From the NCBI GenBank assembly GCA_015065385.1, contig SVQK01000056.1, positions 270,983-334,982 on the forward strand: a DNA stretch of 64,000 nucleotides, read 5' to 3'. The notes beneath the pieces were generated by a model, which was not told the DNA's origin, did not search any database, and was given only the letters and a program-made list of their open reading frames with translations. Both the position numbers and the translations under genes were made by a program. Origin of the DNA: Oscillospiraceae bacterium (GTDB lineage Bacteria > Bacillota > Clostridia > Oscillospirales > CAG-272). Each line of letters begins with the position of its first letter. The stretch's first letter is position 1. Positions 6,555 through 58,120 of the stretch are shown piece after piece.

Positions 6555-6571
6555 GGAAGGGAGCAATTGGA

Positions 6572-7417: not shown

Positions 7418-7439
7418 AAGTTAAAGCGAGGCATTTTTG

Positions 7440-34914: not shown

Positions 34915-37900
34915 ATGTACTTCAAAAAGCTGAAAATCAACGGTATTGAGTATGAAATGGAAACCCATATTGTCGGAGAGGAGGATCCCACCTCCGAGAC
35001 CGAAGGCAATCTGGGCCAGTTCTATTACAACTCGAATACCGGCATCTTCTGGAAGTGTACCTATTCCGAGGATGGCGTGTACTCTTGGGAAGAGTTCAGC
35101 ACGACCGCCTTTGATGAAGTCACGATGGATGAAGAAACCCGGCTTCTCCATTTCCTGAAAAATGGGGAAGATGTAGTCGATCCTGTGTACATCGCGGGAG
35201 GCGGCGGAGGCAGCGGAGGCGGCAGCGGCAACAATGCCGTCCTCACCGTTACAAACATGACCGGATGGCTGGCGCATACGATCAGCACCGGCGCGGACTG
35301 CTATCTGTCTATCGACTGGTCTTCCCTCGAAAATGAGATGGAGACCGGCGCGGGCATCCTGACGATCCGCGTGAACAACGTGGTGAAGCGGACGCTGGAC
35401 ATTTCTCAGGGGACCGTCCGGATCAACCTCAAGGATATTCTTGCGACCGGATCCAACAAGGTCAAGCTGACCGTAACCGACGTGTACGAGAACACGAAGT
35501 CGATCACCTTCACAATCAAGTCCGTCGATCTGCGGCTGGCAAGCTCGTTCTCCACGGTTTCCGAATTCACCGAGGGCGAGGCTGTCGTATTCACCTACAC
35601 GCCCTACGGCTCCGTTTCCAAGACCACGCATTTCGAGGTGGACGGAGCGGATGCCGGGACGCAGGTTGTGACGGCCTCCGGCAGACAGCAGAGCTACACC
35701 CTCCCGGCCATGGCCCACGGCGCGCACAGCCTGAAAGTCTGGTTCACGGCTGAGATCGACGGGGAGGAAGTGTCCTCGAACGTCTTATGGTTTGACATGA
35801 TCGTGGTCGGGGATTCGACCGCGCCGATCATTTCGACCTCGTTCCGCACCTCCGAAGCCGTGCAGTACGAAACCCTGTACATCAAATACCGCGTCTACAC
35901 CCCGAACAGTCTGACGTCCGTTGTCAGCCTGTATTCCGGGAACACGAAGATCACCGATCTGACCGTGGACCGGACGGAACAGACATGGACCTATCGCTGC
36001 GACGGATACGGGGAGCTGAATCTTTCGATCCGGAGCGGAACCGCCGTCGTGAATTTCGTGATCGACGTGGAGCAGTCCGACATTGACACGGAGCCGGAGG
36101 CCGACTCCCTCGCCCTGCATCTTTCGAGCTACGGGCGATCCAACAACGAGGAGCATCCGGAGGTCTGGAAGGACGAAGAGCACAACATTTCCTGCCAGCT
36201 CACGGGATTCAGCTACGTTGCAAACGGATGGGTCGCGGACAAGGACGGCAACACCGTCCTTCGCGTCTCCGGAAACGCCCGCGTGACGATCCCGTACAAG
36301 CCCTTCGAGAGAGATTTCCGCACCACGGGCAAGACGCTTGAGTTTGAGTTTGCGACGCGGGATGTGCTGGACTACGACGCGGTGCTGGTTTCCTGCATGA
36401 ACGGAAACCGCGGATTCGAACTCACGTCCCAGCGGGCAACGCTGAAATCCGAACGGTCGGAGATTTCCACGCAGTACAAGGAAGACGAGCACGTCCGGAT
36501 TTCCTTTGTGGCGGAGAAGAGAACCGAAAGCCGCCTGATCTACGTTTACATCAACGGCATCATGTCCGGCGTGGTGGAGTATCCGGAAGACGACGACTTC
36601 TCCCAGCAGTCTCCGGTGAACATCACCATCGGCGCGAACACCTGCACGACCGATCTATACAACATCCGGGTCTACGACAACAACCTGACCCGGTTCCAGA
36701 TCGTGAGCAACTGGATCGCCGACACGCAGAACATCACGGAAATGCTGGCCCGGTACGAGCACAACAACGTGTACGACGAATACGGGAATGTCGTCATTTC
36801 CAAGCTGCCGAAGGATCTGCCGTACATGATCATCGAGGCGGAGGAACTTCCGCAGTACAAGGGCGACAAGAAGACGGTTTCCGTGGAGTACACCGACCCC
36901 GTAACCCCCGGCAGGAGCTTCACGGCGACCGGATGTCAGGCAAACGTACAGGGGACGTCCTCCGCGCCATACGCCCGGAAGAACTACGATATGCAGTTCA
37001 AGGCGGGATTCGTTCTCGCGGACAAGTCCTCGGCGGAAAACTACGAGCTGGCCCCCGGAATCATCCCCTTCAACCGTTTCGTTCTGAAAGCGGATGTGGC
37101 GTCCTCGGAATCCGCAAACAACGTGGAGCTGGTGAAGCTGTTCTGCGAGGCCGATCCCTACAAACGCCCCGAAGAACTGTCGAATGCTAAGGTCAGAAAG
37201 GGTATCTACGGCTTCCCGATTGTGCTGTTCTGGCGCAATCCTGCGGACGGTTCGGAACAGTTCATGGGGAAGTACAACTTCAACCTGCCCAAACGTGCTC
37301 CCGGCCCCTACGGGTACAGCGGAGACATGGAGTCTTGGGAGTTCCAGAACAACACCTCCAACCTCATGCTTTTCCTGAGCGACTATTTCTCCGAGGCACC
37401 TCAGGCTGATCCCTCCACCGGAGAGGTCAAGGCCGCATGGCGATATGATTACGAAGCGCGTTTTCCCTCCGACGAATGGGTGGACTACTCCAAACTTCAG
37501 GAGTTCCAATCCTTTGTCTTCTCGACCTACCGGGCCGGGGCGACGGGGAATGATCTGGAAACGCCCGTGACCTATCAGGAGACCCATACCGTCTATGATG
37601 AGGTGGTGGATCCGGAAACCGGAGCTGTGGACTATGTGGAGCGGCTTGTGACGGAGGATGTGACCTACACCAAGGATACGGCGGAATACCGTCTATCCCG
37701 CTTCCATCATGAGTTCGGTAAATATGCGGAGGTGGATTCGTTCCTCTTCTACTACATCTTTACCGAATTGTTCCTGATGGTGGACTCCCGTGCGAAGAAC
37801 CTGTTCATCGGCTTCTCGGGCGGGCCGACGTCCGGCCTGACCCACCTCGACCGCAAGGCCGTTGCAGAGCCTTACGACATGGACACGGCGATAGGTACGA

Positions 37901-40899: not shown

Positions 40900-40907
40900 G
40901 GGGGACC

Positions 40908-40925
40908 GGGGGTCGCAACCCCCGA
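40908..40925 (+). promoter_or_regulatory. GC hairpin just 3' of VR (candidate DGR target-recognition hairpin)
   Basis: CGGGGGT cgca ACCCCCG: 7-bp stem with a 4-nt loop, 21 nt after the VR end. Confidence 0.55.
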
Positions 40926-41061
40926 GAGCTTAAAGCTCAGGCAAAACAAACAGCAAAGCAAACACAACAAACGCAACGGAAGTCCATATCCGTCCGCGCA
41001 CAGCGGTCGGATATGGGATTTCCCGGGATTCCCTGCGCAGTGGAGCGGTGCTTGTATCCTT

Positions 41062-41199
41062 CGCGTCAACTCGAACACCGGGACCTGCGTCCTGTACGTC
41101 GGCGGTAACTACAACGCGAACGCGAACTATGGGTTCTTCTACTTCAACGCCAACAACTCGGCTTCGAACACCAACGCCAACATCGGCTCCCGCCACCTT
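41062..41199 (+). repeat. DGR template repeat (TR)
   Basis: Non-coding copy of the VR, rich in AAC triplets (translates as RVNSNTGTCVLYVGGNYNANANYGFFYFNANNSASNTNANIGSRHL). It lies 119 nt upstream of the RT gene. Confidence 0.9.
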
Positions 41200-41318
41200 G
41201 TTCATACGGTTTGTGATATGCGCGCAGGGCTTTCCGTACCACTTGGTAAAAATATCGCCGCAAGGAGAGTGTTTAGTAGGACTATCTCGAAAAACGCTCA
41301 GGCGAACAAGGAGAAAAG

Positions 41319-42398
41319 ATGCCAAAAAGAATTGGATTTCTCTACGACAAAATGTGCGACAAGGTTTTCATCCGAACCGCCATCCTCGAAGGCGCGGTCG
41401 GAAAACACAAGCGGGCCGACGTGAAAGCGGTTCTCGAAGATCTTGACGGCTATGTGAACAAGACATACGAAATGCTGGTGAACCGCGCTTATGTTCCGAC
41501 GCCGCCGAGATCGAAGCGGATCTACGACAAGACCTGTCAGAAAGAGCGGACGATCCAGATTGTCCCGTACTTCCCGGACGGAATCATGCACTGGCTCTGC
41601 GTCAAGGCGATGCGGGGCGTTCTGATGCGCGGGATGTACCGCTGGAGCTGCGCGTCCATACCGGGCCGCGGGAACAAATGCGCATGGAGCTATGTCAAGC
41701 GCGCTTTGAAGAAGGATCCGAAGGGGACGAAATACTGTCTGAAGATGGACATCAAGAGCTACTATCCATCGATCAGGCCGAAGCGTCTGATCTGGGCCCT
41801 GGCCCGCAAGATCAAGGACAAGCTGTTTCTGAAAACCGTTTACAGCATAGTGGCTTCGAATCCGGATCCCGGAATCGCGGTCGGTTTTTACATCAACCAA
41901 TGGCTCGCAAACTATTTTCTCGAACCGCTCGACCGGCTGATCTGCTCCCTTCCCGGTGTCAAACACTACGTGCGGAACATGGACGACATGGTAGTATTCG
42001 GGTCGAGCAAACGGGATCTGCACCGGGCGCGGGCGAAAATCTCCGAGTTCCTTTTGGATCGTCTTTCTCTGGTGCTGAAAGGGAACTGGCAGGTATTTCC
42101 CGTGGACGGGCGCGGCGTGGACTTCATCGGCTATCGGTTCTTCCACTCGCACACCGCTTTGAGGCGGAGGAATTTCCTGCGCTTCATCCGGCAGTGCCGC
42201 AGGGTGGCCGGGATGGCCGCGGACGGGATCGCCATTCCATTTCACGAGGCGTCAGGTCTTCTCTCCCGGGCCGGTTCGCTGAAACACTGCGACTGCGCGG
42301 GCGCCAAGCGGCGGTATCTGGACGAGGGAGTCAGCGTCGGGCGGCTGAAACGGGTCGTGAGAGAACATGATCTGCACCTCCGCCTGACGACCGCATAG
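41319..42398 (+). CDS. DGR reverse transcriptase
   Basis: 359 aa. RT motifs: KERTIQIVPYFPDG, YCLKMDIKSYYPSI, IAVGFYINQWLANYFL (near-match to the DGR-type [LIV]GxxxSQ), YVRNMDDMVVFG (YxDD box) and GVDFIGYRF. Confidence 0.9.
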   Translation: MPKRIGFLYDKMCDKVFIRTAILEGAVGKHKRADVKAVLEDLDGYVNKTYEMLVNRAYVPTPPRSKRIYDKTCQKERTIQIVPYFPDGIMHWLCVKAMRGVLMRGMYRWSCASIPGRGNKCAWSYVKRALKKDPKGTKYCLKMDIKSYYPSIRPKRLIWALARKIKDKLFLKTVYSIVASNPDPGIAVGFYINQWLANYFLEPLDRLICSLPGVKHYVRNMDDMVVFGSSKRDLHRARAKISEFLLDRLSLVLKGNWQVFPVDGRGVDFIGYRFFHSHTALRRRNFLRFIRQCRRVAGMAADGIAIPFHEASGLLSRAGSLKHCDCAGAKRRYLDEGVSVGRLKRVVREHDLHLRLTTA

Positions 42399-45599: not shown

Positions 45600-45633
45600 A
45601 GCCCTGTGGTGTAAAAGCCACGGGGCTTTTTTT
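45600..45633 (+). terminator. Rho-independent terminator ending the late/lysis operon
   Basis: AGCCCTGTGG tgtaaaag CCACGGGGCT followed by TTTTTTT. Confidence 0.7.
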
Positions 45634-45941
45634 GTAACAAAACCGGCCCCGGAATCGTAACAAACGAAGTGCCACAAACGGAGAGTGAATCCTACTCAAC
45701 TGGTAGGTTTTAGCCTGTTTTTCCGGGAAATCGCCTTTGTTACACGATTGTTACGGAATGTGACGGAGAATGTTTCACCCGGAAAACCGTTACAGGAAGC
45801 CCTTAGTCCTTATAAATGTAACATTGTAACATTAAAATAAAGAAATAAATAGTATAAATAGCCATTTCTGGCCGGCATACCCCTATACCCCTATATAGGG
45901 AAATTTATAGGAAATTCTTGTTTGTTACGTTTCATGTTACA
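45633..45941. repeat. Array of 9 TGT(A/T)ACA-type sites plus a 12-bp palindrome in an AT-rich non-coding region
   Basis: Site starts: 45633, 45657, 45738, 45749, 45789, 45817, 45825, 45923, 45935. A variant TGTGACG is at 45759. The palindrome CCCTATATAGGG is at 45889-45900, preceded by the direct repeat ACCCCTAT ACCCCTAT. Confidence 0.7.
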
Positions 45942-46068
45942 AAGGTTGAGACCAACCGAAAACGCGCTGAACCGTTTCGGCAGGTCTTTGATGGCGAGTT
46001 AAAGAAGGATGGCTCGATATATGGGCTTATAGTTAAACAGCTTGCTCTAAAAAACTGCAAAAATGGGC

Positions 46069-46097: not shown

Positions 46098-46103
46098 ACC
46101 CGA

Positions 46104-46334
46104 TGCAAAGGGAGGTGAAACGCTTTGAACGAACGGAGAAACCGTATGACGGGAATAAAAAGAAAAGCAATCGTCCAGCATCCCAAACCGTGACGGTTGC
46201 TTTTACCCGAAAACCCCGAAATGGTTTCTCCCGGAAACCGGGATTCCACTTAACTCGGAGGCCTTGCAGAATCTATTATACACTGTTTCCCCCTCCGTGT
46301 CAAGTGGAATCCACTAAAAAATTCGGAGGAAAAT
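46104..46334 (+). ncRNA. Structured ~230-nt 5' leader or small RNA candidate
   Basis: No convincing ORF. One hairpin is GCAATCGTC...GACGGTTGC followed by TTTT (about 46167-46205). A second, large hairpin pairs GGATTCCACTT/AAGTGGAATCC with an inner CGGAGG/CCTCCG pairing (46241-46312). Confidence 0.4.
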
Positions 46335-46484
46335 ATGGAAATCACAAAAGAAGAAGCCCTGCAGATGCTCAAAGCCGTCACGATCCTGCTTTTGGATTGT
46401 GTTGACCGGGGAACCCTGTCTCAGGAAACCTACGTTGATGTGCTCGAGCTTCTCCTGAAGCTCGAGTACGTTTTGGGCAACTGA
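46335..46484 (+). CDS. Small helical protein (49 aa)
   Basis: ATG 46335 lies 6 nt after GGAGG. Translation is MEITKEEALQMLKAVTILLLDCVDRGTLSQETYVDVLELLLKLEYVLGN. Its stop is 2 nt before the next start. Confidence 0.45.
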   Translation: MEITKEEALQMLKAVTILLLDCVDRGTLSQETYVDVLELLLKLEYVLGN

Positions 46485-46997: not shown

Positions 46998-47029
46998 TCC
47001 CGGTGGGTTTATCCCATCGGGATTTTTTT
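46998..47029 (+). terminator. Rho-independent terminator
   Basis: TCCCGGTGGG tttat CCCATCGGGA followed by TTTTTTT. Confidence 0.7.
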
Positions 47030-47049
47030 ATTTTTCTTGTTAAAACCCC

Positions 47050-47078
47050 TTGACTGGTTAAAGAAAGTATGCTAATAT
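47050..47078 (+). promoter_or_regulatory. Sigma-70-type promoter
   Basis: TTGACT (47050-47055), 17 nt, TAATAT (47073-47078). Confidence 0.6.
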
Positions 47079-49145: not shown

Positions 49146-49298
49146 GTGAGAAACCGGCAGAAGCAACGGGCGCTTCGGCGTTCCGGGAAGAAGCGGGATT
49201 CCCCGATAGATTTCCGGAACGCGGAGCATTACCCGGATCCTGTTCCGCACGACGCGGTTGACAGAATAATCAGAAAGGAGAAAAAGAAGGTCGTATGA
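49146..49298 (+). CDS. Small basic protein (50 aa) of a type common in Firmicutes mobile elements
   Basis: GTG 49146. Translation is VRNRQKQRALRRSGKKRDSPIDFRNAEHYPDPVPHDAVDRIIRKEKKKVV. Its stop overlaps the next ATG (ATGA). Confidence 0.4.
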   Translation: MRNRQKQRALRRSGKKRDSPIDFRNAEHYPDPVPHDAVDRIIRKEKKKVV

Positions 49299-50338
49299 TT
49301 GACTACGAAGGCAAGCGAAAAGCCGCGGCAGAGGCATTACAGCACAGGCTTGCCGATCTGATGGATGACGCGGGAATCAACTCTAAAGTGCTGGCAAATG
49401 CCATCGGTGTAACCTATTCGAGCATCAACAACATCAAATCGGGGAAGACGGAACCCGGTTTCACCCTTCTGGTGTTGCTGGCAGACTATTTTGCGGTCCC
49501 GCTGGATTATCTCACCGGGAGGTGCAGCTTGCAAACCGCTGAGGACGTGCTGAAGAACTATCCCGAACGGTTTCAGGTTTTACGCCGGGCAGCTTATGAA
49601 GAATATCTTGGATTACGCAAGTATATTCGGATTCCGCTCGGGTATGAAAGCCCGTGGCCCTACAATCTGGTAGAGAGCGTTCGGATGCACTACGCGGAGG
49701 AGGTTTTACGGGAAGATCAGCTGCGCGGGCTGGACAAGGCGATAGACTCCCTGTCAGAAAGGGAACGCGATTCGATCTTGTGCTATTACCGGGATGGTTT
49801 TACCTTACAGCAGATCGGGGACCGCTGGGGAGTTACCCCGCAACGGGTGAGACAGGTTTTGGAAAAGGCCGTCCGAAAGCTCCGTCACCCGGCCCGACAG
49901 AAACTGGTTCTTGAGGGATACGACATCGTGGAGGAGAAGGCCAAAATCGAAAAGCGAAAGGCTGAGTTAAAAGCAGAAGAGGATTCCTTGAACCAGTTAG
50001 CGGATGCGCTTATGGCCAAGCGTCTCAGGCTGTGCGGGCTTCACCACGATCTTGAAGCACTGATTAAGTGGGATTCTGAATTGCGCGATGTGCGGGGAGA
50101 GACCCCGACAATGGATGTGCCGATTGAAAATCTGGACTTGACCGTTCGAGCTTACCACGCCTTGCACCGTGCCGGGTTTCGCACCTTGGGACAGGTGATC
50201 GACGCTGAGGCCGCAGGGAACCTTAAAGGGATCCGTCTGCTCGGCCCCAAGAGCTATGATGAAGTGCTGGGGCGGTGCAAGTGGTTTCTTGAAAACACTC
50301 CGATCTATGAGAATAAAGGTAGGGGTGGCGAAAGATGA
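49295..50338 (+). CDS. Three-module transcription factor: XRE HTH + sigma-70 region 4 + RNAP alpha-CTD-like domain
   Basis: HTH: NSKVLANAIGVTYSSINNIKSGKTEP. Sigma r4: LSERERDSILCYYRDGFTLQQIGDRWGVTPQRVRQVLEKAVRKLRH. AlphaCTD-like: IENLDLTVRAYHALHRAGFRTLGQVID...LKGIRLLGPKSYDEVL. Confidence 0.75.
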   Translation: MIDYEGKRKAAAEALQHRLADLMDDAGINSKVLANAIGVTYSSINNIKSGKTEPGFTLLVLLADYFAVPLDYLTGRCSLQTAEDVLKNYPERFQVLRRAAYEEYLGLRKYIRIPLGYESPWPYNLVESVRMHYAEEVLREDQLRGLDKAIDSLSERERDSILCYYRDGFTLQQIGDRWGVTPQRVRQVLEKAVRKLRHPARQKLVLEGYDIVEEKAKIEKRKAELKAEEDSLNQLADALMAKRLRLCGLHHDLEALIKWDSELRDVRGETPTMDVPIENLDLTVRAYHALHRAGFRTLGQVIDAEAAGNLKGIRLLGPKSYDEVLGRCKWFLENTPIYENKGRGGER

Positions 50339-50703
50339 AACTCACGGATTTCAAGGTCGGCGATAGGTTATGGCGTGTTGACTTCGACAAGAAGACCGGC
50401 GCGGTTTCATATACACCATTTCCGATTTCAAAGGTCGGTCGGAAATATGTGTATGTCCGGATTGGGTGTTGGGATACGCAGTTTCAGATGCACATTAAGG
50501 AAGGCTGCTTTTTGGAAGTGAAGGATTGGGGTTCTCCTGAAGTTCTATATTTCTCGGAGCAGGATGCTCGGGATTATGTAGAGCGGAGGAATTGTGAGGA
50601 TTTCCTCGCCCGGCTCGATAGCTGGGGATTAAGAAAATACAGTCTGGAAACCCTGCGGAAAGCCGTCCGAATTTTGAAGACGGGGGAAAAAGAAAATGGC
50701 TGA
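50335..50703 (+). CDS. Hypothetical protein (122 aa)
   Basis: Coupled ORF (ATGA overlap). Confidence 0.6.
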   Translation: MKLTDFKVGDRLWRVDFDKKTGAVSYTPFPISKVGRKYVYVRIGCWDTQFQMHIKEGCFLEVKDWGSPEVLYFSEQDARDYVERRNCEDFLARLDSWGLRKYSLETLRKAVRILKTGEKENG

Positions 50704-50968
50704 AAAAACATATGTACAATGCAAATATCGTGTCGAGTATTATGCGACGGAAGAGGATGCAATGAATGGTTGTCCCACTCTCGAAGACAGATACATCGCT
50801 GGCGAGTATAAACATGTGGAATGGGATGGCGCGGTTTTAACCGTTGGTAAGAAAAAAATATATTCAGAATATGCCGAAGAGGTGTACGGCTATACAGGTA
50901 TAGATTTTCTCAAAATAGATGGGACGGTTTATGTAGGAGAAGAAAGCGGAGGAGGTGAGCAATTCTGA
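50696..50968 (+). CDS. Hypothetical protein (90 aa)
   Basis: Coupled ORF (ATGGCTGA overlap). Confidence 0.55.
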   Translation: MAEKTYVQCKYRVEYYATEEDAMNGCPTLEDRYIAGEYKHVEWDGAVLTVGKKKIYSEYAEEVYGYTGIDFLKIDGTVYVGEESGGGEQF

Positions 50969-51426
50969 TGGAGTACAATGACTATCGGTTAAGCGATGCC
51001 GAGTTGGATCAATACGCTGACATACTTGCTGAGGACACCGCCCACACACAGCGGTTTGAAGGCCACCACGACACCGTTGCCGAGTGCGTATTGGAGCTGG
51101 TTCGGCGCGAGCTCGAGAGAAATGAACTCGGTAGTGATGATGCGGTTCCGGTACTATCGGAACAAGGCCCGCGATTGCTGGCCTTGGCCGAGGTGCTGGC
51201 CTACACGGACGATGATGTTCTCTACATCGAAACGGCGGTCACAAATGAAGCAAAGCCCGCAATATACCAACCGGCGACTTCAGATCTGGTTGGAGGGGCC
51301 TTGTATTTCTCAAGTTCTAAGGCAAAAACCGGGCTTTACAGGATAAAGTTCTACGGAAAAACGTGGAGGTGCTGGAGCGCCAGACCTACCTACGAGCAGA
51401 GAAAAGAGGTGCCTTGGAATGGCTGA
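50968..51426 (+). CDS. WRCW-family paralog A
   Basis: C-terminus FYGKTWRCWSARPTYEQRKEVPWNG. The internal EQGPRLLALAEVL is shared with three later paralogs. Confidence 0.6.
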   Translation: MEYNDYRLSDAELDQYADILAEDTAHTQRFEGHHDTVAECVLELVRRELERNELGSDDAVPVLSEQGPRLLALAEVLAYTDDDVLYIETAVTNEAKPAIYQPATSDLVGGALYFSSSKAKTGLYRIKFYGKTWRCWSARPTYEQRKEVPWNG

Positions 51427-52021
51427 AAAACCGATCCTGTTCGGCACAGAAATGGTATGTGCCATCCTCGACGGGCGGAAGACGCAGACACGGAGAGTTA
51501 TCAAACCCCAGCCGTCTGATGGAAAAAAGCCGATGGTCGATCCGTTCTATGGAACATATGGCTATGAAAGAGCGGATGAGAAACGGACCCCATACGCCAT
51601 CGACGATATTCTTTGGGTGCGCGAGACATGGAAAAACGCAACCGGAGATCCGGCTGGTGGCGGGTATGCCCTTTTTGACACCTACATCTACAAAGCCGAT
51701 GGACAAGCAAAGGTTGACTATCCGACAGATGAAATGCTGGTTGAAGACCGCTGGCGTCCCTCTATCTTTATGCCGAAGAGTGCCGCGCGGATTTTCCTCC
51801 GGGTGAAGAACGTGTGGGTCGAACGGCTACAGGACATCGATGCGATAGATTGTGTTGCCGAGGGATGCGATGCTGATATGCTATCCGGTGTTGGTCCGGA
51901 GTTTACACGCGGCGTTTTTAACGGGATATGGGACAGTACGATCAAGGAGAAAGATTTTCCGTTTTATAGCTGGGACGCAAACCCATGGGTATGGGTGCTT
52001 TCATTCGAAAGAATCCAATGA
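51419..52021 (+). CDS. Conserved phage protein (ASCH/PUA-like N-terminal motif)
   Basis: PILFGTEMVCAILDGRKTQTRRVIKPQP...ILWVRETW is a pattern I recall from ASCH-domain phage proteins. Confidence 0.55.
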   Translation: MAEKPILFGTEMVCAILDGRKTQTRRVIKPQPSDGKKPMVDPFYGTYGYERADEKRTPYAIDDILWVRETWKNATGDPAGGGYALFDTYIYKADGQAKVDYPTDEMLVEDRWRPSIFMPKSAARIFLRVKNVWVERLQDIDAIDCVAEGCDADMLSGVGPEFTRGVFNGIWDSTIKEKDFPFYSWDANPWVWVLSFERIQ

Positions 52022-52051
52022 AGAATCGGGTTTGAAATTGCAATGAGGAGG
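52020..52051 (+). repeat. 32-bp direct repeat, copy 1 (gene junction plus RBS)
   Basis: GAAGAATCGGGTTTGAAATTGCAATGAGGAGG, identical to 52730-52761. Confidence 0.9.
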
Positions 52052-52057
52052 TGCGGG

Positions 52058-52396
52058 ATGACAAACCGTGAGGCGTTCGGAGTTTATTTGCGGTGCCAGT
52101 TAGAAATCGGCGTTCAAGCGGTGGAAAAACTGAGCGATTTCGTGTTCGTGGCTTGGGCGTTCGCAAACAAAGAAGCGGCCATCCGGGAGAAGATCAACGA
52201 TGCTTTGACTTTCTTCTGGTACACGCAGGGCGGGAGGAAATACGGCAAGGGTATAGACAATGTGGTCTTGTGGCTCGGTGCGGAATTCGACGGCGACATC
52301 GACGAATGCCGGAAGATATGGAGCGAATCGGACTGTAGCTGGGCTGAAGAGATCACAAAGGGTTTCGGGGAAATTAGAGGAGACAGCGATGATTGA
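52058..52396 (+). CDS. Hypothetical protein (112 aa)
   Basis: ATG 52058 lies 6 nt after the GAGGAGG provided by the repeat. Confidence 0.55.
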   Translation: MTNREAFGVYLRCQLEIGVQAVEKLSDFVFVAWAFANKEAAIREKINDALTFFWYTQGGRKYGKGIDNVVLWLGAEFDGDIDECRKIWSESDCSWAEEITKGFGEIRGDSDD

Positions 52397-52745
52397 GTTT
52401 GAAACTATGGCACAACCCAAAGCGCGAAAACAGCACAAATGCTATTTGTGCGGGTATCCGATTGTCTATGGTGAGCGCTATTTCCGCCATTCGGGAAAGT
52501 GTGACGGGGAGTTCTTCGATAACTGCTACCATGAGGAGTGTTCCGATCTGATAGAATCCTACTGCCGTGAGTTCATGGAAACAGAATGGGACCGTGATGC
52601 CATAAGTGAGTGGCTGAGTGACCGTTATTGCCGTGATTGTCGGCATGGAACAGAACAAGACGATGATTGCGAAGTCTCTGTTCTCCTGTGTCGGTCGATC
52701 CGTGCAAAATACAGAGCAGAGCACAGACAGAAGAATCGGGTTTGA
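52389..52745 (+). CDS. Cys-rich hypothetical protein (118 aa)
   Basis: ATG 52389. The sequence KCYLCGYPI...CYHEEC...YCRDCRHG suggests zinc binding. Confidence 0.55.
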   Translation: MIEFETMAQPKARKQHKCYLCGYPIVYGERYFRHSGKCDGEFFDNCYHEECSDLIESYCREFMETEWDRDAISEWLSDRYCRDCRHGTEQDDDCEVSVLLCRSIRAKYRAEHRQKNRV

Positions 52746-52761
52746 AATTGCAATGAGGAGG
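52730..52761 (+). repeat. 32-bp direct repeat, copy 2
   Basis: Identical to 52020-52051. Here the upstream stop codon lies inside the repeat in a different frame. Confidence 0.9.
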
Positions 52762-52765
52762 CTGG

Positions 52766-52984
52766 ATGAAACGAATAATCTGTGATCGGTGTAAGGTCGA
52801 ATATGCACCTGCTCCGGATTGGACGCAAGTCCCGAAGTTTGAGTACCGGGTGCGTTACTACTATTACGGCGGAGGAACGTATAGAGCCGCGACTTTGGAC
52901 CTCTGCCAAGAATGCCAGAAAGATCTGGACGAGTTCATCAAGGCAAAAAGCAAAATCCAGAAAGGGGATAGCACAGATGATTGA
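52766..52984 (+). CDS. Zn-ribbon small protein (72 aa)
   Basis: CDRC...CQEC pattern, with the RBS supplied by the repeat. Confidence 0.55.
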   Translation: MKRIICDRCKVEYAPAPDWTQVPKFEYRVRYYYYGGGTYRAATLDLCQECQKDLDEFIKAKSKIQKGDSTDD

Positions 52985-53113
52985 CACGGAATGGCTGAAC
53001 GCGGCTATCGCCACGATCCAATCCGGGATAGCCGACAAGCTGACGAAGGGGAACGTCACTGTTTACCGGGTGCTCAATATCATAAGAATCGACATCAACT
53101 TGGGGGCGGGAAA

Positions 53114-53347
53114 ATGAATAAGTTGCTGGGTTTCCTAAAACGTTGTCAGCGGAATCGGAACAAGCCGGATCTGCATTCATTCTGGATCGAGATAGACGGC
53201 GGCAGAGCGTATGTAGACTGTGACGGGGACGGTGTGTACATAGAGGCCCACACCTCTGCCGGGATAGCCCGTTGGCGAGGAAACCTCGTCGAAGCGGCTA
53301 ACAGGCTATCCGATTCCGGGGCGGTCTTCGGATCCATCGATATGTGA
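53114..53347 (+). CDS. Hypothetical small protein (77 aa)
   Basis: ATG 53114 inside track ORF 52991..53347. Confidence 0.45.
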   Translation: MNKLLGFLKRCQRNRNKPDLHSFWIEIDGGRAYVDCDGDGVYIEAHTSAGIARWRGNLVEAANRLSDSGAVFGSIDM

Positions 53348-53365
53348 AGTGAGGAGCTGAAAAAG

Positions 53366-53551
53366 ATGAAAGGCAACGAAATCAAAGAGACAGATCGCAA
53401 ACGATGGGAGAAAGCCGGAATGATCCCCGCTGCTTGTCGCTTTTGTGGGGAGATTATGCTTTTCCCGAAGGAAACCTATAAAACGGAGCAGTTAGCCGGA
53501 TATGAGTGTGCGAACTGCAAGGCGCTTATGCGTATGTTCGGGAGAAGGTAA
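53366..53551 (+). CDS. Zn-ribbon small protein (61 aa)
   Basis: CRFCGE...CANC pattern. Confidence 0.5.
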   Translation: MKGNEIKETDRKRWEKAGMIPAACRFCGEIMLFPKETYKTEQLAGYECANCKALMRMFGRR

Positions 53552-53555
53552 GCGG

Positions 53556-53867
53556 ATGAGCGACTTTGTAAGCCGTCAATGGCTGATTGATGAATACCAC
53601 CGGAGGCATCAAGGACCTCCGGGCGGTGCGCTGAAAATGATCGAAGAAGCTCCCGCCGCCGATGTGGAGCCGGTAGTTCATGGGTTCTGGTACTTACGAG
53701 GTGGACGCCCATGTTGCTCCGTGTGCAATACAAAGGCGCTTTGGAAAGACGAGGGCGGGACTGGCGGGTTCTCACACGAATACGTCGGAGCCAAAAGCAA
53801 ACGATGTCCGGAGTGCGGGGCCAGAATGGATAAGGGAGGAAAAACAGATGATAAAAATACTGTGTGA
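53556..53867 (+). CDS. Small Zn-ribbon protein, AADVEPV-HG-W paralog 1
   Basis: MSDFVSRQWLIDEY...APAADVEPVVHGFW...CSVC...CPECGARMD. Confidence 0.55.
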   Translation: MSDFVSRQWLIDEYHRRHQGPPGGALKMIEEAPAADVEPVVHGFWYLRGGRPCCSVCNTKALWKDEGGTGGFSHEYVGAKSKRCPECGARMDKGGKTDDKNTV

Positions 53868-54132
53868 TAAGTGCGGGGCTGATTGCGACAGAGTTTCCTT
53901 TGCGGTGTCCGTTTCATTGATTCATAATCCGAGCCCTTTGTATGTAGGGGATACCGGCAACCCCACGTTAACCGACGAACCCAATAAACATGTGCAGTTC
54001 ATTCTTTGTCAAGATTGCTATACAAAGTTGGGGCTTCCGAACGTGTACTTACAACGCCCTAACAGCAAGCGTATCGCATGGCGAGAGACCGATGGGGACA
54101 GCGATGCCAAAGAGGTCAGTGATGCCGAATAA
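53848..54132 (+). CDS. Zn-ribbon small protein (94 aa)
   Basis: MIKILCDKCGADC...CQDC pattern. Confidence 0.5.
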   Translation: MIKILCDKCGADCDRVSFAVSVSLIHNPSPLYVGDTGNPTLTDEPNKHVQFILCQDCYTKLGLPNVYLQRPNSKRIAWRETDGDSDAKEVSDAE

Positions 54133-54508
54133 CGAGTATGTTTTGCGGAGCGATGCGCTGAAAGCTGTCTGTGAGAACTGCTCTATGCACGGATCGGACG
54201 GAGAGCCTTGTTCGAGTAGATGCGAAGATTATGCGCTGGTTCAGAAGATCCCCGCTGCCGACGTGGAGCCTGTGAAGCACGGATATTGGGTTTATAAGAT
54301 GCGGGAGCGAAACAAATGCGAGTTTGTGTCCGGCTTTGATCACTTGGGGGATTGGCACACTATAACCGTGATTACTCATGTCAAAGGGCCTGTTCCTTAT
54401 TGTGGATTGTGTGGTGCGCTGGCTGCGGAAAGTTTTCTGGATCATTGCCCGAGGTGCGGCGCGAAGATGGACACCGAACCGCCGAAGGAGGAAGATAATG
54501 CTGATTAA
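54122..54508 (+). CDS. Small Zn-ribbon protein, AADVEPV-HG-W paralog 2
   Basis: IPAADVEPVKHGYW...CGLC...CPRCGAKMD. Confidence 0.55.
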   Translation: MPNNEYVLRSDALKAVCENCSMHGSDGEPCSSRCEDYALVQKIPAADVEPVKHGYWVYKMRERNKCEFVSGFDHLGDWHTITVITHVKGPVPYCGLCGALAAESFLDHCPRCGAKMDTEPPKEEDNAD

Positions 54509-54743
54509 ATTCACAGGTAACACTCCGGATAATTTGGCCGCATATATCAATCCCGCATATGTATCTGCTGTATTGCCACGGCGCAATATATTAACAGGGG
54601 AAGTCCTTGATGGAACTTCAATCTATTTGGTAGGCGATGAAAGACCCATACATGTGAAGGAAGAGGTGGAAGAGGTCGTTGATACGATATTGAAAAGCAC
54701 TATGGTGACATTCCTTGTTCCGGATCCGCCAAAGGAGGACTAA
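54498..54743 (+). CDS. Hypothetical small protein (81 aa)
   Basis: ATG 54498 after GGAGGAAG. Confidence 0.5.
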   Translation: MLIKFTGNTPDNLAAYINPAYVSAVLPRRNILTGEVLDGTSIYLVGDERPIHVKEEVEEVVDTILKSTMVTFLVPDPPKED

Positions 54744-54747
54744 ATAA

Positions 54748-54942
54748 ATGACAGTTTGTGACCGATGCAGAAAAGAACTCCATGATCGGGTAGTTATTCG
54801 TAGGTGCATAAGAATATTCGGGAATATCATTTTTAGCGAAGACGGTATTTTGTGTAAGGAGTGCTGGAACGATTTCAAGCGGTTCATAACGCCGATTACT
54901 ACAAAGCCGTCGAAGGAGAAGGACGATGAAAAAGCAGATTGA
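54748..54942 (+). CDS. Zn-ribbon small protein (64 aa)
   Basis: CDRC...CKEC pattern. Confidence 0.5.
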   Translation: MTVCDRCRKELHDRVVIRRCIRIFGNIIFSEDGILCKECWNDFKRFITPITTKPSKEKDDEKAD

Positions 54943-55246
54943 TATAGAAGACAGCATAGGTATTATTCAGAAGGTTGCCAACAACGGGAAAATGCTGTGG
55001 GAACTCCATGAGGGAGAAGTGGTTTCGATCACATACAACCGCTATTCAGGGCGGCGAGTTAAGGCGAGGGGTTTTTATACCTTTGATGACGACGCTATAA
55101 CCGACATCGAAAACAATACCGCGTGGTTGAAAGAATCCCCCGCATTGACACTTGTAAATGAACCGTTTATCCTGACGGACGAGCTGAGACAGCGAGCGAA
55201 CCGGTGGATCGAAACTCAGAACGCAAGAGGTGATGACGATGCCTGA
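54926..55246 (+). CDS. Hypothetical protein (106 aa)
   Basis: Coupled ORF whose stop lies inside the ATGCCTGA junction. Confidence 0.55.
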   Translation: MKKQIDIEDSIGIIQKVANNGKMLWELHEGEVVSITYNRYSGRRVKARGFYTFDDDAITDIENNTAWLKESPALTLVNEPFILTDELRQRANRWIETQNARGDDDA

Positions 55247-55640
55247 ACGCCTGAAACGCGTGTACGCATTCCAATGCCCGCATTGTGGCCGAGAGATCAA
55301 ATACAACCGAAACTACTACGACAAGAAGATAGCTGAGCTGAAAGCGTCCATCACGAGCATCCATGCCCAACTGACGGAGCATAAAGACGACGGGGATCCT
55401 GATTGGAAGAAACGGTGCGTTGCGGCAAAGGGAGCTATGGAACAGCAGCTCGCAGAGCTGAAGAGTTTCCGGGCCGAGGCTAATGTGCTCGTGAAAGAAC
55501 GAATTGATGATGCTTTCAAAGGGGTGGTAAAAGAGAAGATAGGAGAGGAAAACTACATCAAGTGGATGCAGGAGGCCGAACAGCGGATTGAGTACGCCGA
55601 TACCAAGGAGCTGATGCGACATGACGGGGGAGGCGTTTGA
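55239..55640 (+). CDS. Zn-ribbon plus coiled-coil protein
   Basis: MPERLKRVYAFQCPHCGREIKY... followed by a helical region. Confidence 0.55.
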   Translation: MPERLKRVYAFQCPHCGREIKYNRNYYDKKIAELKASITSIHAQLTEHKDDGDPDWKKRCVAAKGAMEQQLAELKSFRAEANVLVKERIDDAFKGVVKEKIGEENYIKWMQEAEQRIEYADTKELMRHDGGGV

Positions 55641-55641
55641 A

Positions 55642-56067
55642 ATGCCTGATCGAGAAAAAACGATAAAGGGCTTAGAGCATTGCACGAGGTTGTTTGATTG
55701 CAACGGATGCCCGTATTTTTCCAAAGGAATTGATCAGAAGACTTGTATGCTACGAAATGGAAAAGACGCCCTTGCCCTGCTAAAAGCGCTGGAGCCGCGG
55801 TTGCTGACGCTCGAAGAAGTGCTGAATGCTGACGATTTTGTGTGGGCTGAAATTTATACTCCTAAAAAATGGAGTTGGTGCGTTGTCTATGCCAAGATCA
55901 GTCCGCTTGTAGGTAACGATGAGATTGTGTTAATCGAAGAGGACTGCGGAACCGGGTGGGCGAGGAACAAGGCGGAATACGGCAAGCGTGGATTCCTTGA
56001 TGGCGGCTGGCGGTGCTGGTCTGTGCGGCCTACGGAGGATCAGAGGAGAAATGAACCGTGGCAATAA
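55642..56067 (+). CDS. WRCW-family paralog B
   Basis: MPDREKTIKGLEHC...CNGCPYF...DALALLKALEPRLLTLEEV...GGWRCWSVRPTEDQRRNEPWQ. Confidence 0.6.
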   Translation: MPDREKTIKGLEHCTRLFDCNGCPYFSKGIDQKTCMLRNGKDALALLKALEPRLLTLEEVLNADDFVWAEIYTPKKWSWCVVYAKISPLVGNDEIVLIEEDCGTGWARNKAEYGKRGFLDGGWRCWSVRPTEDQRRNEPWQ

Positions 56068-56678
56068 ACGATTTAACCGGGAGCGTATTTGGAAGATGGA
56101 CGGTCATTAAACCAAGTACAAAAACATCTTACTTTGTTTGTGAATGTTCATGTGGAATTATCAAGGATGTTCGGAGAGACCATCTTTTGAGTGGTAAGTC
56201 CAAATCATGTGGCTGTTTGGTAAAAGAAGGTCATTCGCGGATTTATAAAGGGAGACCTGATCGGCGGTCGCTCAATCGTGTGTACGGTTGTATGATTGGT
56301 AGATGTTATAATACTAAATCCGATTCATATGCTTATTATGGCGGCAGAGGAATAACGGTATGTGATGAGTGGAAAGAATCATTTGATGTATTTGCTGAAT
56401 GGGCATATGAAAATGGGTATAAAACAGGATTAACTATTGATAGAATCGACAATAATAAGGGATATTATCCAGAAAACTGTAGAATTGTTACCAAGCAGGA
56501 ACAGAACAACAACAAAAGGAACAATGTAGTTTTGTTAATTGATGGTGTCCGATATACTGTAACTCAAGCGGCGAACAAAGCCGGGATAAAACCTTCAACA
56601 GTATTTAATTGGATATATCGAGGGGCAACGAAAAATGAGGTGATTTCAAAACTAAAGGCGGTGAAGTGGGATGCCTGA
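56058..56678 (+). CDS. AT-rich acquired gene: DNA-binding protein of the YGGRGI...DRID type (freestanding homing-endonuclease-associated/AP2-like family)
   Basis: FGRWTVIKPS...CECSCG...SCGC; YAYYGGRGITVCDEWKESFDVFAEWAYENGY...LTIDRIDNNKGYYPENCRIVTKQEQNNN. The gene is visibly lower in GC than its flanks. Confidence 0.6.
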   Translation: MAINDLTGSVFGRWTVIKPSTKTSYFVCECSCGIIKDVRRDHLLSGKSKSCGCLVKEGHSRIYKGRPDRRSLNRVYGCMIGRCYNTKSDSYAYYGGRGITVCDEWKESFDVFAEWAYENGYKTGLTIDRIDNNKGYYPENCRIVTKQEQNNNKRNNVVLLIDGVRYTVTQAANKAGIKPSTVFNWIYRGATKNEVISKLKAVKWDA

Positions 56679-57051
56679 GCGGAAAAAGGTGATGTTAGAA
56701 ATCGAAAAAGCTATCAATGAAGCTGACAGCACGGCGGCGTTTGCGCTTATACTGACGCACACGTTGAGGGACGCCCTCGCCCTGCTGAAGGGGCAGGAGG
56801 CGCGGGTAGTCAATGTTGGCGACTTCTACGGTGGAGAATTTGGCTATCTTGAATACAGGTCGGACAGACCGAGCTTCTCAAATTTTGAGCCAAGTCCCGT
56901 GCTGATAGGTGACATCGACGAGGAAAACGTCACTGTTATATTCCGTAGTGCTTCGGTACAAAAGCTACAGTTGGACAGGATGAACAAAAACTGGCGTATA
57001 TGGAGCGAATATCCGACGCATGAGTTGTTAAGGACGGTGAAGTGGGAATGA
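56671..57051 (+). CDS. WRCW-family paralog C (divergent)
   Basis: LRDALALLKGQEARVVNVGDF...KNWRIWSEYPTHELLRTVKWE. Confidence 0.55.
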   Translation: MPERKKVMLEIEKAINEADSTAAFALILTHTLRDALALLKGQEARVVNVGDFYGGEFGYLEYRSDRPSFSNFEPSPVLIGDIDEENVTVIFRSASVQKLQLDRMNKNWRIWSEYPTHELLRTVKWE

Positions 57052-57521
57052 GGATCACACCAGAAATGATGGTCGAAGACGAACAACGATGGCATGCCCG
57101 AGACGTGATCACGGAACTCGGCTATTGCGGAAGTTACATGCGTGACCGAAAAGACATGACAAACCTTGACATTCGGTTTTATGCCTACCTCATGCGCAAG
57201 GCGCACGATATGCTGAAGGAGCAGGAGCCAAGGGTGATGACGCTCGAAGAGGTGTGTAATCTGAAATATGACGATGTTGTCTACTATCAAGGGATCAATA
57301 CGAATTCCGTGGAGAGCGCTATTGTTCTTCACGGGGAAAAAATGGTTCCAGAGGTAAACACAAGAGTTGTCCAGTTTAGACACGCTGACGGAACTGGTGG
57401 ATGGAACGGTATCAATAATGCCGATCTGAATGGGTACGGTAAAAAATGGCGGTGCTGGTCTGCCCGTCCGTCAGAACGGCAGATGCGGGACACGCCATGG
57501 GAAGGAGAGAATGATGCCTGA
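57048..57521 (+). CDS. WRCW-family paralog D
   Basis: AHDMLKEQEPRVMTLEEV...GYGKKWRCWSARPSERQMRDTPWEGE. There is an ATGA overlap with the upstream gene. Confidence 0.6.
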   Translation: MRITPEMMVEDEQRWHARDVITELGYCGSYMRDRKDMTNLDIRFYAYLMRKAHDMLKEQEPRVMTLEEVCNLKYDDVVYYQGINTNSVESAIVLHGEKMVPEVNTRVVQFRHADGTGGWNGINNADLNGYGKKWRCWSARPSERQMRDTPWEGENDA

Positions 57522-57768
57522 ATATCATCTTGGGGTTTCCCCGATTACCAACACGATCTACGCCGGGACGCTAAACAAGGCGAAGACGATGTGGCTGAAC
57601 AAAAGTGACGTTACCGATGAAGCGGTCGCCTGTGTTCGGGACCATCTGAAACGACTCGCAGACGACGAACCGGATTCCAAATTCGGGTACGAGTGGGATC
57701 TGAAAGACGGAGGAAAAGTTCAGCTGCTTGTTAAGATTTTACCGAAGGAGGAGACCGAAAATGCCTGA
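57514..57768 (+). CDS. Hypothetical small protein (84 aa)
   Basis: ATG lies in the ATGCCTGA junction. Confidence 0.5.
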   Translation: MPEYHLGVSPITNTIYAGTLNKAKTMWLNKSDVTDEAVACVRDHLKRLADDEPDSKFGYEWDLKDGGKVQLLVKILPKEETENA

Positions 57769-58120
57769 TATCAAGCGAACCATAGACCAGATGAAGAGGC
57801 TCGAAGAAACGGTTGGAGACTCCACCATGCAGGGGGCCGGTCAGGTTCTCCGGGATGCCATTGCGCTTTTGGAGGCGTATCAGAAGGTTCCGAAATGGAC
57901 CCCGGTAACGGAAGGCCTCCCGCCTCAGTTTGAGGTTGTCTGGGCCACGGATGGCGAAGATGTCGGCCTTGCAGCTCTGCAGGGATTCTGCAATGACGAG
58001 CCACTGTGGACCGGTGTCTGGAATTTAGACTATCTGGATGATCCGGACGATGAAGACTACCTCCCCATCATCAAATGGAAGCCGCTCGAAACGCTCCCGG
58101 ATCCGAAAGGGGGTGAATGA
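57761..58120 (+). CDS. Hypothetical protein, DUF551-like C-terminal half
   Basis: VPKWTPVTEGLPPQFEVVWATDGEDV...IIKWKPL pattern. Confidence 0.5.
   Translation: MPDIKRTIDQMKRLEETVGDSTMQGAGQVLRDAIALLEAYQKVPKWTPVTEGLPPQFEVVWATDGEDVGLAALQGFCNDEPLWTGVWNLDYLDDPDDEDYLPIIKWKPLETLPDPKGGE

Follow-up and report, generated by a model that had tools for sequence, protein, structure and literature searches.

Phage proteins that reprogram transcription, such as AsiA/MotA, gp67, Q, gp2 and gp79, have repeatedly revealed how RNA polymerase (RNAP) works. To our knowledge, all known proteins of this kind bind RNAP or DNA with folds of their own. Here we describe a phage protein family that re-uses the promoter-reading parts of RNAP itself on a single polypeptide. 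Its first member is encoded at 49295-50338 in a 64,000-nucleotide stretch of an Oscillospiraceae bacterium assembly (contig SVQK01000056.1, positions 270,983 to 334,982), hereafter the window, to whose numbering all coordinates refer unless another contig is named. A sequence-only reading of the window had proposed that this protein joins an XRE helix-turn-helix (HTH), sigma-70 region 4 and a domain resembling the C-terminal domain of the RNAP alpha subunit (alphaCTD), and that it might bridge or redirect host RNAP. The finding is real. It goes further than proposed in that the protein belongs to a large family and carries an additional element like the RNAP beta flap-tip helix, and weaker in that bridging at the beta flap is not favoured.

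In RNAP, sigma region 4 naturally docks on the beta flap-tip helix, and the phage protein AsiA has been described as a functional mimic of region 4 (PMC6755090). In alphaCTD, the 265, 261 and 287 determinants have been defined, together with the interface between alphaCTD residue 261 and R603 of sigma region 4 (PMC1874639).

Domain architecture of the protein

The order in the protein (49295-50338, + strand) is XRE HTH, flap-like helix with a sigmaA-type region 4, leucine-heptad helix and alphaCTD-like domain. The features, with amino acid (aa) positions and the evidence for each, are:

49295-50338, + strand: whole gene, 347 aa, ATG start (open reading frame (ORF) list with Pfam and NCBIfam domains)
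49328-49615, + strand: N-terminal domain, aa 12-107, made of XRE/HTH_3 (aa 21-73) and two further conserved helices (aa 79-107) (Pfam, AlphaFold2, covariation)
49646-49690, + strand: invariant E-[AS]-P-W-P-Y-N-L motif and short amphipathic helix (aa 123-130) (conservation, position-specific scoring matrix (PSSM), AlphaFold2, covariation)
49712-49918, + strand: sigma-70 region 4 (4.1 and 4.2) of primary-sigma type, with the C-terminal end KAVRKLRHPAR (Pfam, NCBIfam, PDB sequences, Foldseek)
49925-50095, + strand: long helix, aa 211-267, with a leucine heptad at 218/225/232/239/246/253, then a linker of variable length (AlphaFold2 helix, alignment)
50099-50275, + strand: RNAP alphaCTD-like domain (Pfam RNA_pol_A_CTD, rpoA NCBIfam models, RpoA PDB chains)

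The frame had been placed exactly by the sequence-only reading, and all three of its domain assignments lie above the Pfam gathering cut-offs (GA): HTH_3 at aa 21-73 (40.4 bits versus GA 23, E 3e-10), Sigma70_r4 at aa 149-198 (53.3 bits versus GA 24.1, E 1.9e-14) and RNA_pol_A_CTD at aa 269-324 (45.6 bits versus GA 23.8, E 5.6e-12), the last reaching up to 82.9 bits in relatives. The RpoD/FliA and rpoA models of NCBIfam fall on the same region 4 and alphaCTD segments, and of the PDB sequences, region 4 of primary SigA/RpoD and RpoA's C-terminal domain match best. MAFFT reproduced the by-eye alignment to E. coli alphaCTD, with LLGPKS opposite NLGKKS and the LDLTVRAYHAL segment likewise paired; R285 and G317 are the equivalents of R265 and G296, and both are near-invariant across the family. 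An AlphaFold2 model built from 57 homologues has a mean predicted local distance difference test (pLDDT) score of 86. In Foldseek searches the modelled region 4 superposes on SigA region 4 at a root-mean-square deviation (RMSD) of about 2 A with 36-41% identity, including on the region 4/-35 DNA complex 1KU7. The earlier reading had missed the leucine-heptad helix and the PWPYNL motif with its flap-like helix, as well as the fact that this member diverges at several of the canonical contact positions.

The two helices that follow the HTH are conserved at Y89, F93, L96, R97, R98, Y101 and E102, and the covarying pairs 28-104, 28-99, 67-96 and 18-72 link them to the HTH core. The long helix has L, I, V, M or F at positions 225, 232, 239 and 246 in 97, 97, 96 and 88% of members, the alignment becomes gappy over the linker (aa 252-269), and the helix is a probable oligomerisation element and spacer. 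Covariation was found neither between region 4 and alphaCTD nor between the XRE domain and region 4, so the protein appears modular, like beads on a string.

Among Pfam families there was no Sigma70_r2 or Sigma70_r3 match at E<=10, no RNA_pol_A_bac or RNA_pol_L match, and no Peptidase_S24 match. The NCBIfam sigma models cover region 4 ends only, and the rpoA models fit with their C-terminal part only (for example positions 240-305/320). The protein is thus not RpoA: alphaCTD with its 265 determinant is present, but the N-terminal dimerisation and core-assembly domain is absent. It is not a CI-type lysogeny repressor either, as HTH_3 occurs without an S24 domain and the context is not a divergent lysogeny switch. 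No single Pfam, NCBIfam or PHROG model describes the whole protein, and its best PHROG matches are generic transcriptional regulator or repressor families. Public data contain an identical protein, on contigs up to 543 kb, under the name 'sigma-70 family RNA polymerase sigma factor [Ruminococcaceae bacterium]'.

A large protein family in gut and rumen phages

The architecture defines a large, uncharacterised family of phage regulators, and adds a new architecture to those of phage transcription regulators. A word-indexed search returned 61 clusters with the identical three-domain architecture, and an exhaustive profile search of 1.84 billion representatives returned 1,399 proteins at E<=1e-30. 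At 50% clustering there are at least 150 full-length representatives, and the best 150 are nearly all 315-375 aa long and match end to end. The fusion is not unique to the window. That reading's view of the architecture as uncharacterised held: we found no described regulator family of this kind in the profile libraries or the literature, and full-text literature searches found no description of the three-domain architecture, of alphaCTD-like phage proteins or of flap-tip mimics.

Family members come from uncultivated gut and rumen phages. A tblastn search of 50,697 GenBank phage records gave single-domain matches and no full-length relative, and with the 6-kb neighbourhood as query, megablast matched none of the GenBank phages. 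One scan of GTDB species representatives, limited to a pattern that lay within the XRE domain and returned mostly unrelated XRE proteins, yielded two full-length matches, in an Oscillospiraceae metagenome-assembled genome (MAG; L010) and a Saccharibacteria-labelled MAG (L011). Scanning IMG/VR with E-x-PWPYNL gave nine loci, with four full-length members, on contigs of 17-56 kb; another, over-specific DNA pattern yielded one locus. Two variants without the HTH (P0060, P0061) retain the motif, region 4, the helix and alphaCTD, which marks these four as the family core.

At every locus inspected, the family gene is co-directional with its neighbours and lies inside the early or replication region of a phage. 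It stands beside DUF2800, an Enc34 single-stranded DNA-binding protein and DNA polymerase A in L004, precedes an SNF2-methylase in L007, lies among nucleotide-metabolism genes on a contig of about 97 kb in L009, and follows ParB and a methylase in L095. In L092 it sits between the replication module and the terminase, about 2 kb upstream of the latter. No neighbour gene is conserved across the family loci examined.

Two observations concern unusual members. The full-length members L011 (JAFYKF010000010.1) and P0058 are on contigs from water-buffalo abomasum binned as Candidatus Saccharibacteria, and reflect either a phage that infects an ultrasmall epibiont or an error of binning. The family profile matches 11 separate stretches of the 1,002-aa protein P0081, best over the XRE part, which suggests that XRE-type HTH domains are arrayed in tandem in that protein.

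The RNAP-derived modules keep their DNA-contact residues

Conservation was scored in 185 family members mapped onto E. coli numbering, with a +4 correction to the sigma70 numbering after residue 567 for an E. coli loop insertion. The E. coli sigma70 and alpha reference sequences index correctly onto the well-known residues, and the RpoB reference fragment has 100% identity to an annotated rpoB. We take the role of R584, E585, R586, R588 and Q589 in reading the -35 element to be established by genetics and by the Taq region 4/-35 structure. The two sets of DNA-contact positions are conserved as follows:

Region 4, -35 reading: E585 83%, R586 94%, R588 86%, Q589 95%
Region 4, -35 reading: R584 is R in 54%, and R or K in 65%
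alphaCTD, 265 determinant: R265 99%, N268 91%, C269 74%, N294 84%, G296 98%
alphaCTD, 265 determinant: K298 is K or R in 81%, S299 is S or T in 90%

Some protein-contact surfaces are also retained. The sigma region 4 contact patch is kept at R596 (82%), K597 (72%), R599 (92%), H600 (73%) and R603 (69%), the RKLRHPxR patch is conserved at 73-92%, and 70% and 66% of members have an acidic residue at the equivalents of alpha D259 and E261. Conservation does not extend to the 287 activator-contact determinant. The best-conserved residues of both RNAP-derived modules are chiefly the DNA-contact ones, which favours autonomous DNA reading over binding to the RNAP core and points away from the bridging mechanism suggested earlier.

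The modules differ in how much they vary. Mean column entropy is 2.83 bits in the XRE recognition helix (aa 41-49), 1.50 bits in the recognition helix of region 4.2 and 1.27 bits in the DNA helix of alphaCTD. This contrast suggests that region 4 and alphaCTD address a universal target, for instance consensus promoter elements or surfaces of RNAP, and that the XRE domain addresses a phage-specific one.

The window protein itself keeps the equivalents of R586, R588 and Q589. At the R584 and E585 equivalents it has P182 and Q183, and in alphaCTD the N268, C269 and K297 equivalents are H288, A289 and P318. Since canonical contact positions differ, the DNA specificity of this member may be shifted.

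A flap-tip-like helix next to region 4

No element of the protein is more conserved than E-[AS]-P-W-P-Y-N-L (aa 118-125), in which P122, Y123, N124 and L125 are invariant or nearly so. The helix that continues from it has the family consensus PWPYNLLDDIFGEPWDEV, that is LLDDIFGE(PW), and resembles the RNAP beta flap-tip helix (LLRAIFGE), which in annotated rpoB genes reads AEERLLRAIFGEKAREV in C. difficile, LLHAIFGE in B. thuringiensis and EEKLLRAIFGEKA in E. coli. Hydrophobic residues occupy positions i, i+1, i+4 and i+5 in 131 of the 185 members, and 79 of them have L[LIVM]xx[IVL]F, a pattern with a background of about 1.8e-4 per residue in random translation.

A PSSM of columns 125-132 ranks the flap tip first of the 2,385 windows of C. 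difficile RpoB and RpoC (16.3 versus 12.7 bits), and a 14-column PSSM also places it first in the same two proteins (11.9 versus 4.9). Of 616,177 windows from 2,586 unrelated ORFs, none but the Bacillus RpoB flap tip scores as high as the C. difficile one. In RpoB plus RpoC, about 0.004 such windows would be expected with 8 columns and 0.064 with 14.

Structure prediction and covariation both link this helix to region 4. The fragment aa 112-212 is modelled as a single compact domain (pLDDT 92.8, predicted template modelling score 0.81), with a pLDDT above 90 for the helix. Covariation was calculated as mutual information with average product correction, from an effective number of about 160 sequences, and its top pairs are genuine intradomain contacts in region 4 and alphaCTD. 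Between the helix and region 4 the pairs are 130-202 (z 7.3, among the top seven), 128-165 (z 4.9), 126-205 (z 4.3) and 127-198 (z 4.2). Pair 130-202 is size-compensating: F occurs with K, S or A, and I or V with L or F. Positions 202 and 205 align to S604 and L607 of sigma70, in the C-terminal helix, and the title of Bonocora et al. 2011 names carboxyl-terminal residues of sigma70 as the target of the flap tip. Foldseek alignments are sequential and the engineered sigma4-flap chimeras carry the flap at the C terminus, so the docking site of an N-terminal helix is not visible in them. Because the flap-like helix adjoins region 4 on its N-terminal side, the model is compact and the two covary, the flap-binding site of region 4 is probably occupied in cis, and we consider such predicted docking likely. 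This disfavours the earlier idea that region 4 sits on the beta flap to bridge or redirect RNAP, as the protein's own helix is predicted to form one compact domain with region 4 and covaries with its C-terminal helix.

Proposed mechanism and alternatives

Our model starts from the observed domain identities, conservation patterns, family distribution and genomic context. The XRE HTH, whose recognition helix differs from phage to phage, would read a phage-specific operator. The flap-tip-like helix would dock in cis where the RNAP flap tip normally sits, and with that site filled, region 4 would become a stable, autonomous module for reading -35 elements that neither needs nor binds the RNAP core. 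The leucine-heptad helix would oligomerise, and the flexible linker would present the alphaCTDs as in the alpha dimer, each with an intact 265 determinant able to bind the minor groove of A/T-rich, UP-like DNA. Such an oligomer could sit, independently of RNAP, on a -35-like hexamer and A/T-rich DNA next to its specific operator, and binding there would control sigmaA-dependent promoters. Its sign may be occlusion or competition that shuts off early-phage or host promoters dependent on UP and -35 elements.

We think that some form of autonomous promoter-upstream reading, whichever way it regulates, is reasonably probable. That it acts by occlusion or competition is a tentative proposal. Equally tentative is the fuller scenario, in which phages of gut Clostridia captured and fused sigmaA region 4, the beta flap-tip helix and alphaCTD into a self-contained, oligomeric reader of the upstream half of promoters. 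This reader would recognise UP and -35 elements in trans and independently of RNAP, out-competing the holoenzyme or docking onto it via the alphaCTD-sigma4 interface, with the XRE domain as the phage-specific address.

Several points weigh against this model. LLxxIF is a simple amphipathic pattern, the PSSM columns were picked after the resemblance had been noticed, and the window protein departs from the helix consensus, reading LVESVRMH and having R in place of F. When an unbiased profile of aa 117-139 was run against all PDB sequences, it retrieved neither RpoB nor the sigma4-flap chimeras; that profile is dominated by PWPYN, which is absent from the flap. The 'a' positions of the 57-residue long helix are mostly charged, so dimerisation is not assured. 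With replacements at the R584, E585, N268, C269 and K297 equivalents, the window protein is an atypical member. DNA binding by the protein and its DNA targets are predictions, and the sign of regulation is our inference. The kept RKLRHPxR patch and the acidic 259/261 positions are RNAP protein-protein surfaces that suit an activator at least equally well, and the position of the L092 gene is typical of a late activator.

These last points lead to the strongest alternative, that the same autonomous reader activates middle or late phage promoters. The XRE HTH and region 4 would anchor upstream, and the holoenzyme would be recruited by placing the alphaCTD beside host sigmaA region 4 and region 4 beside host alphaCTD. 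Retention of the sigma4 contact patch and of acidic alpha 259/261 equivalents agrees with this route, the L092 gene has the replication module on one side and the terminase on the other, and known Gram-positive late activators such as RinA (the subject of PMC3152322) are distantly sigma-like. However, the gene is often far from late genes, embedded beside those for DNA polymerase or nucleotide metabolism, conservation is lower at the interface than at the DNA contacts, and the promoters to be regulated are hypothetical. We regard activation as somewhat unlikely.

The bridging idea of the sequence-only reading, which we frame as a one-protein analogue of sigma appropriation by T4 AsiA and MotA, seems quite unlikely. 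Here region 4 would displace or replace host sigmaA region 4 on the beta flap, and alphaCTD and the XRE domain would redirect the holoenzyme to phage promoters. Region 4 is indeed of primary-sigma type and retains the C-terminal helix with which sigma70 binds the flap, and phage factors acting at the flap or at sigma region 4 are well known (PMC6755090; gp79). Yet the built-in flap-like helix appears packed on region 4, the protein lacks the regions 2 and 3 that could keep it on the core, and it is the DNA-contact residues that are best conserved.

The flap-tip resemblance could also mean that the helix captures host sigmaA region 4 in trans, as AsiA does, making the protein an anti-sigma factor. 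As an alternative or in addition, the region 4 and alphaCTD copies could be decoys that titrate host or phage factors contacting sigma4 or alphaCTD, with no sequence-specific DNA binding. The conserved surface patches of sigma4 and alphaCTD would fit such a role, and phage G1 gp67, which binds sigmaA region 4 and blocks alphaCTD-UP contacts, is a precedent (PMC3694059). But the helix covaries with its own region 4, which is unexpected if the partner is a nearly invariant host sigmaA, and the fragment is predicted to be a compact domain. Moreover, the DNA contacts R265/G296 and R588/Q589 are the most conserved of all. We consider such a role, in either form or both, improbable.

An ordinary XRE-type phage repressor or regulator, with the extra domains serving as generic DNA-affinity or oligomerisation modules unrelated to RNAP, would account for the canonical N-terminal HTH_3 and for the generic regulator and repressor families among the best PHROG matches. 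It would not account for the members that lack the HTH and keep the region 4, helix and alphaCTD core, nor for the conservation of RNAP-specific determinants, beyond folds, in at least 150 diverse members, and the gene is co-directional within early operons rather than part of a divergent lysogeny switch. We consider this explanation improbable as well.

Finally, a genuine alternative sigma factor is hardly credible and was rejected: the NCBI protein name and a score of 53.1 bits (cut-off 42.9) to the sigma70-ECF model TIGR02937 speak for it, but this superfamily model matches with its region 4 end only (positions 99-165), so the public name is a mis-annotation, the N-terminal half (aa 1-107) is an XRE HTH, Foldseek alignments to full sigma chains are meaningful over region 4 only, and region 2, needed for core binding, -10 recognition and melting, is absent even at the permissive threshold given above.

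Genomic context in the window

The sequence-only reading took the element to be a phage, and the window bears this out: genes for terminase, portal, protease, major head, tape measure and baseplate mark it as a tailed phage or prophage. Almost all genes are on the + strand, and the structural genes are accompanied by a diversity-generating retroelement and an amidase, followed by an early or replication-type region. Two features lie upstream of the gene:

46998-47078, + strand: intrinsic terminator (46998-47022), then a sigmaA-type promoter, TTGACT-17-TAATAT with a TG extension (47050-47078) (consensus scan)
45633-45942, no strand assigned: iteron array of 9 GTWAC cores in 310 bp, many of them TTGTWAC, around an AT-rich core (motif counts, shuffles)

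Judged by consensus matches, the 47050 promoter appears to begin the operon that holds 49295-50338, and the consensus scan found no other noteworthy promoter-like or terminator-like site on the + strand between that promoter and the gene. The operon runs DUF932, SLT transglycosylase, a 50-aa ORF (49146-49298), 49295-50338, a ProQ_C-like gene and then about 25 small ORFs. The gene has a Shine-Dalgarno-like AAGGAG/GAAGG 5' of its start, and the start overlaps the stop of the 50-aa ORF as ATGA. That ORF was rejected as a partner gene, being absent as a conserved gene in other loci. The ProQ_C-like gene (50335-50703; PF24203, phrog_3032) comes next downstream with a stop/start overlap, and is kept in the closest relative and not across the family.

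The iteron array lies about 3.4 kb upstream of the gene, flanked by a terminator (45600-45627) on one side and by a near-consensus promoter (46069, TTGACT-17-TATAAT) on the other. Its cores are TGTAACA, TTGTTACG and similar, and it contains an inverted repeat (45824-45848 / 45918-45942). The 310 bp hold 8 of the window's 17 TTGTWAC sites, and no shuffle reached 17. From its sequence features the array may be an origin or operator region. It is a possible target of the 49295-50338 protein, as the repeats begin with TTG and the protein has altered R584/E585 equivalents. The array region lies outside the contig of the closest relative.

Other observations in the same part of the window include a perfect 12/12 sigma-70 promoter on the minus strand (46303..46275, TTGACA-17-TATAAT; within 46241-46312), which sits in a 21-nt inverted repeat of 90% complementarity, antisense to the + strand ORF 46103-46405. 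The roughly 25 small co-directional ORFs occupy 50000-58000, where GC skew is strong (about +0.2 versus about 0.05 elsewhere). Downstream of the early region, at 62661-63122, is a gene for LuxS (S-ribosylhomocysteinase, the autoinducer-2 synthase). It has the same relative position in the contig of an 81%-identical relative (L094, 12665-13126), so it is probably phage-borne and not host flank. In L009, an AcrVA2-like gene (an anti-CRISPR family; 6456-7517 of that contig) lies two genes upstream of the family member.

Three further features of the window were noted. The diversity-generating retroelement spans 34915-42398, and 14 of 15 mismatches between its template and variable repeats are at template adenines:

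40750-40887: variable repeat, at the 3' end of a 1,994-aa ORF (34915-40899)
41062-41199: template repeat
41319-42398: reverse transcriptase

In the head-gene region, 7437-10925 encodes a 1,162-aa protein that matches Alt-like and Bxa ADP-ribosyltransferases (phrog_16625, phrog_802) in its C-terminal part. On these matches the protein may be injected to modify RNAP or some other protein of the host, and if so the same phage would carry a second takeover function related to transcription. In the protein at 1532-4387, the portal part (aa 14-463) is fused to a lengthy C-terminal extension, of which aa 608-737 match a Nudix/MutT hydrolase.

Implications and comparison with known systems

If the protein does read UP and -35 elements autonomously, a flap-tip mimic in cis can make sigma region 4 independent of the core. 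The family would then offer a natural tool to probe or block UP/-35-dependent promoters in Firmicutes, and a regulator common among uncultivated phages of gut and rumen, now mis-annotated as a sigma factor, would have been identified. It would also represent a new principle of takeover, mimicry of the DNA-reading surface of RNAP as opposed to binding RNAP. The model can be tested directly on a small, soluble protein.

Among Gram-positive phage regulators, the RinA (the subject of PMC3152322), ArpU and Xpf-like late activators are likewise phage-encoded, distantly related to sigma and located between replication and packaging genes in some genomes, as in L092. The 25 best NCBIfam or PHROG matches are generic sigma and regulator families, with no RinA or ArpU profile in them. 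A position directly upstream of terS would be expected of RinA- and ArpU-type activators; that of the family gene varies, being about 2 kb upstream of the terminase in L092 and within replication modules elsewhere. We know of no Gram-positive late activator described with an XRE HTH, an alphaCTD or a flap-like helix.

T4 AsiA/MotA is likewise a phage strategy centred on the -35 region and on sigma region 4 with the flap-tip helix (PMC6755090). In that case two proteins with no homology to region 4 or alphaCTD act on RNAP, whereas the family protein is a true region 4 homologue and probably does not sit on the flap. Family-profile and PDB searches gave no sequence or fold similarity to AsiA or MotA. 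Phage G1 gp67 of Staphylococcus aureus is an early phage protein that acts at the interface of sigmaA region 4, alphaCTD and the UP element and affects UP-dependent promoters (PMC3694059). It binds host sigmaA region 4 and is unrelated in sequence and fold, whereas the family carries copies of the RNAP modules. By analogy, the shut-off we propose would be functionally comparable to the effect of gp67, reached by other means.

The family shares with the alphaCTD of RNAP (PMC1874639) the near-invariant 265 determinant and the acidic positions of the 261 determinant, and, as in the alpha dimer, its alphaCTD is held on a flexible linker from a probable dimerisation element. Unlike alpha, it has a leucine-heptad helix in place of the N-terminal assembly domain, its 287 determinant is not conserved, and it is not part of the RNAP core.

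With region 4 of the primary sigma factors (sigma70/SigA) the family shares the fold (36-41% identity, about 2 A RMSD), the RKLRHPxR signature and the residues that read the -35 element. It differs in lacking regions 2 and 3; its region 4 is a natural module that a phage encodes, joined to an XRE HTH and an alphaCTD. The likeness extends to the engineered sigma4-flap-tip chimeras (PDB 3T72, 7KUF, 8CWR and others), which are among the PDB matches and in which, as in the family, a flap-tip or flap-tip-like helix is covalently joined to region 4. In the chimeras, the experimenters' way to a free-standing region 4, the flap helix is C-terminal to region 4; in the family it is N-terminal, its packing is predicted, and it is preceded by the invariant PWPYNL that is absent from RpoB. 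If our model is correct, phages of gut Clostridia have evolved a natural counterpart of these chimeras, with the XRE HTH as each phage's own address.

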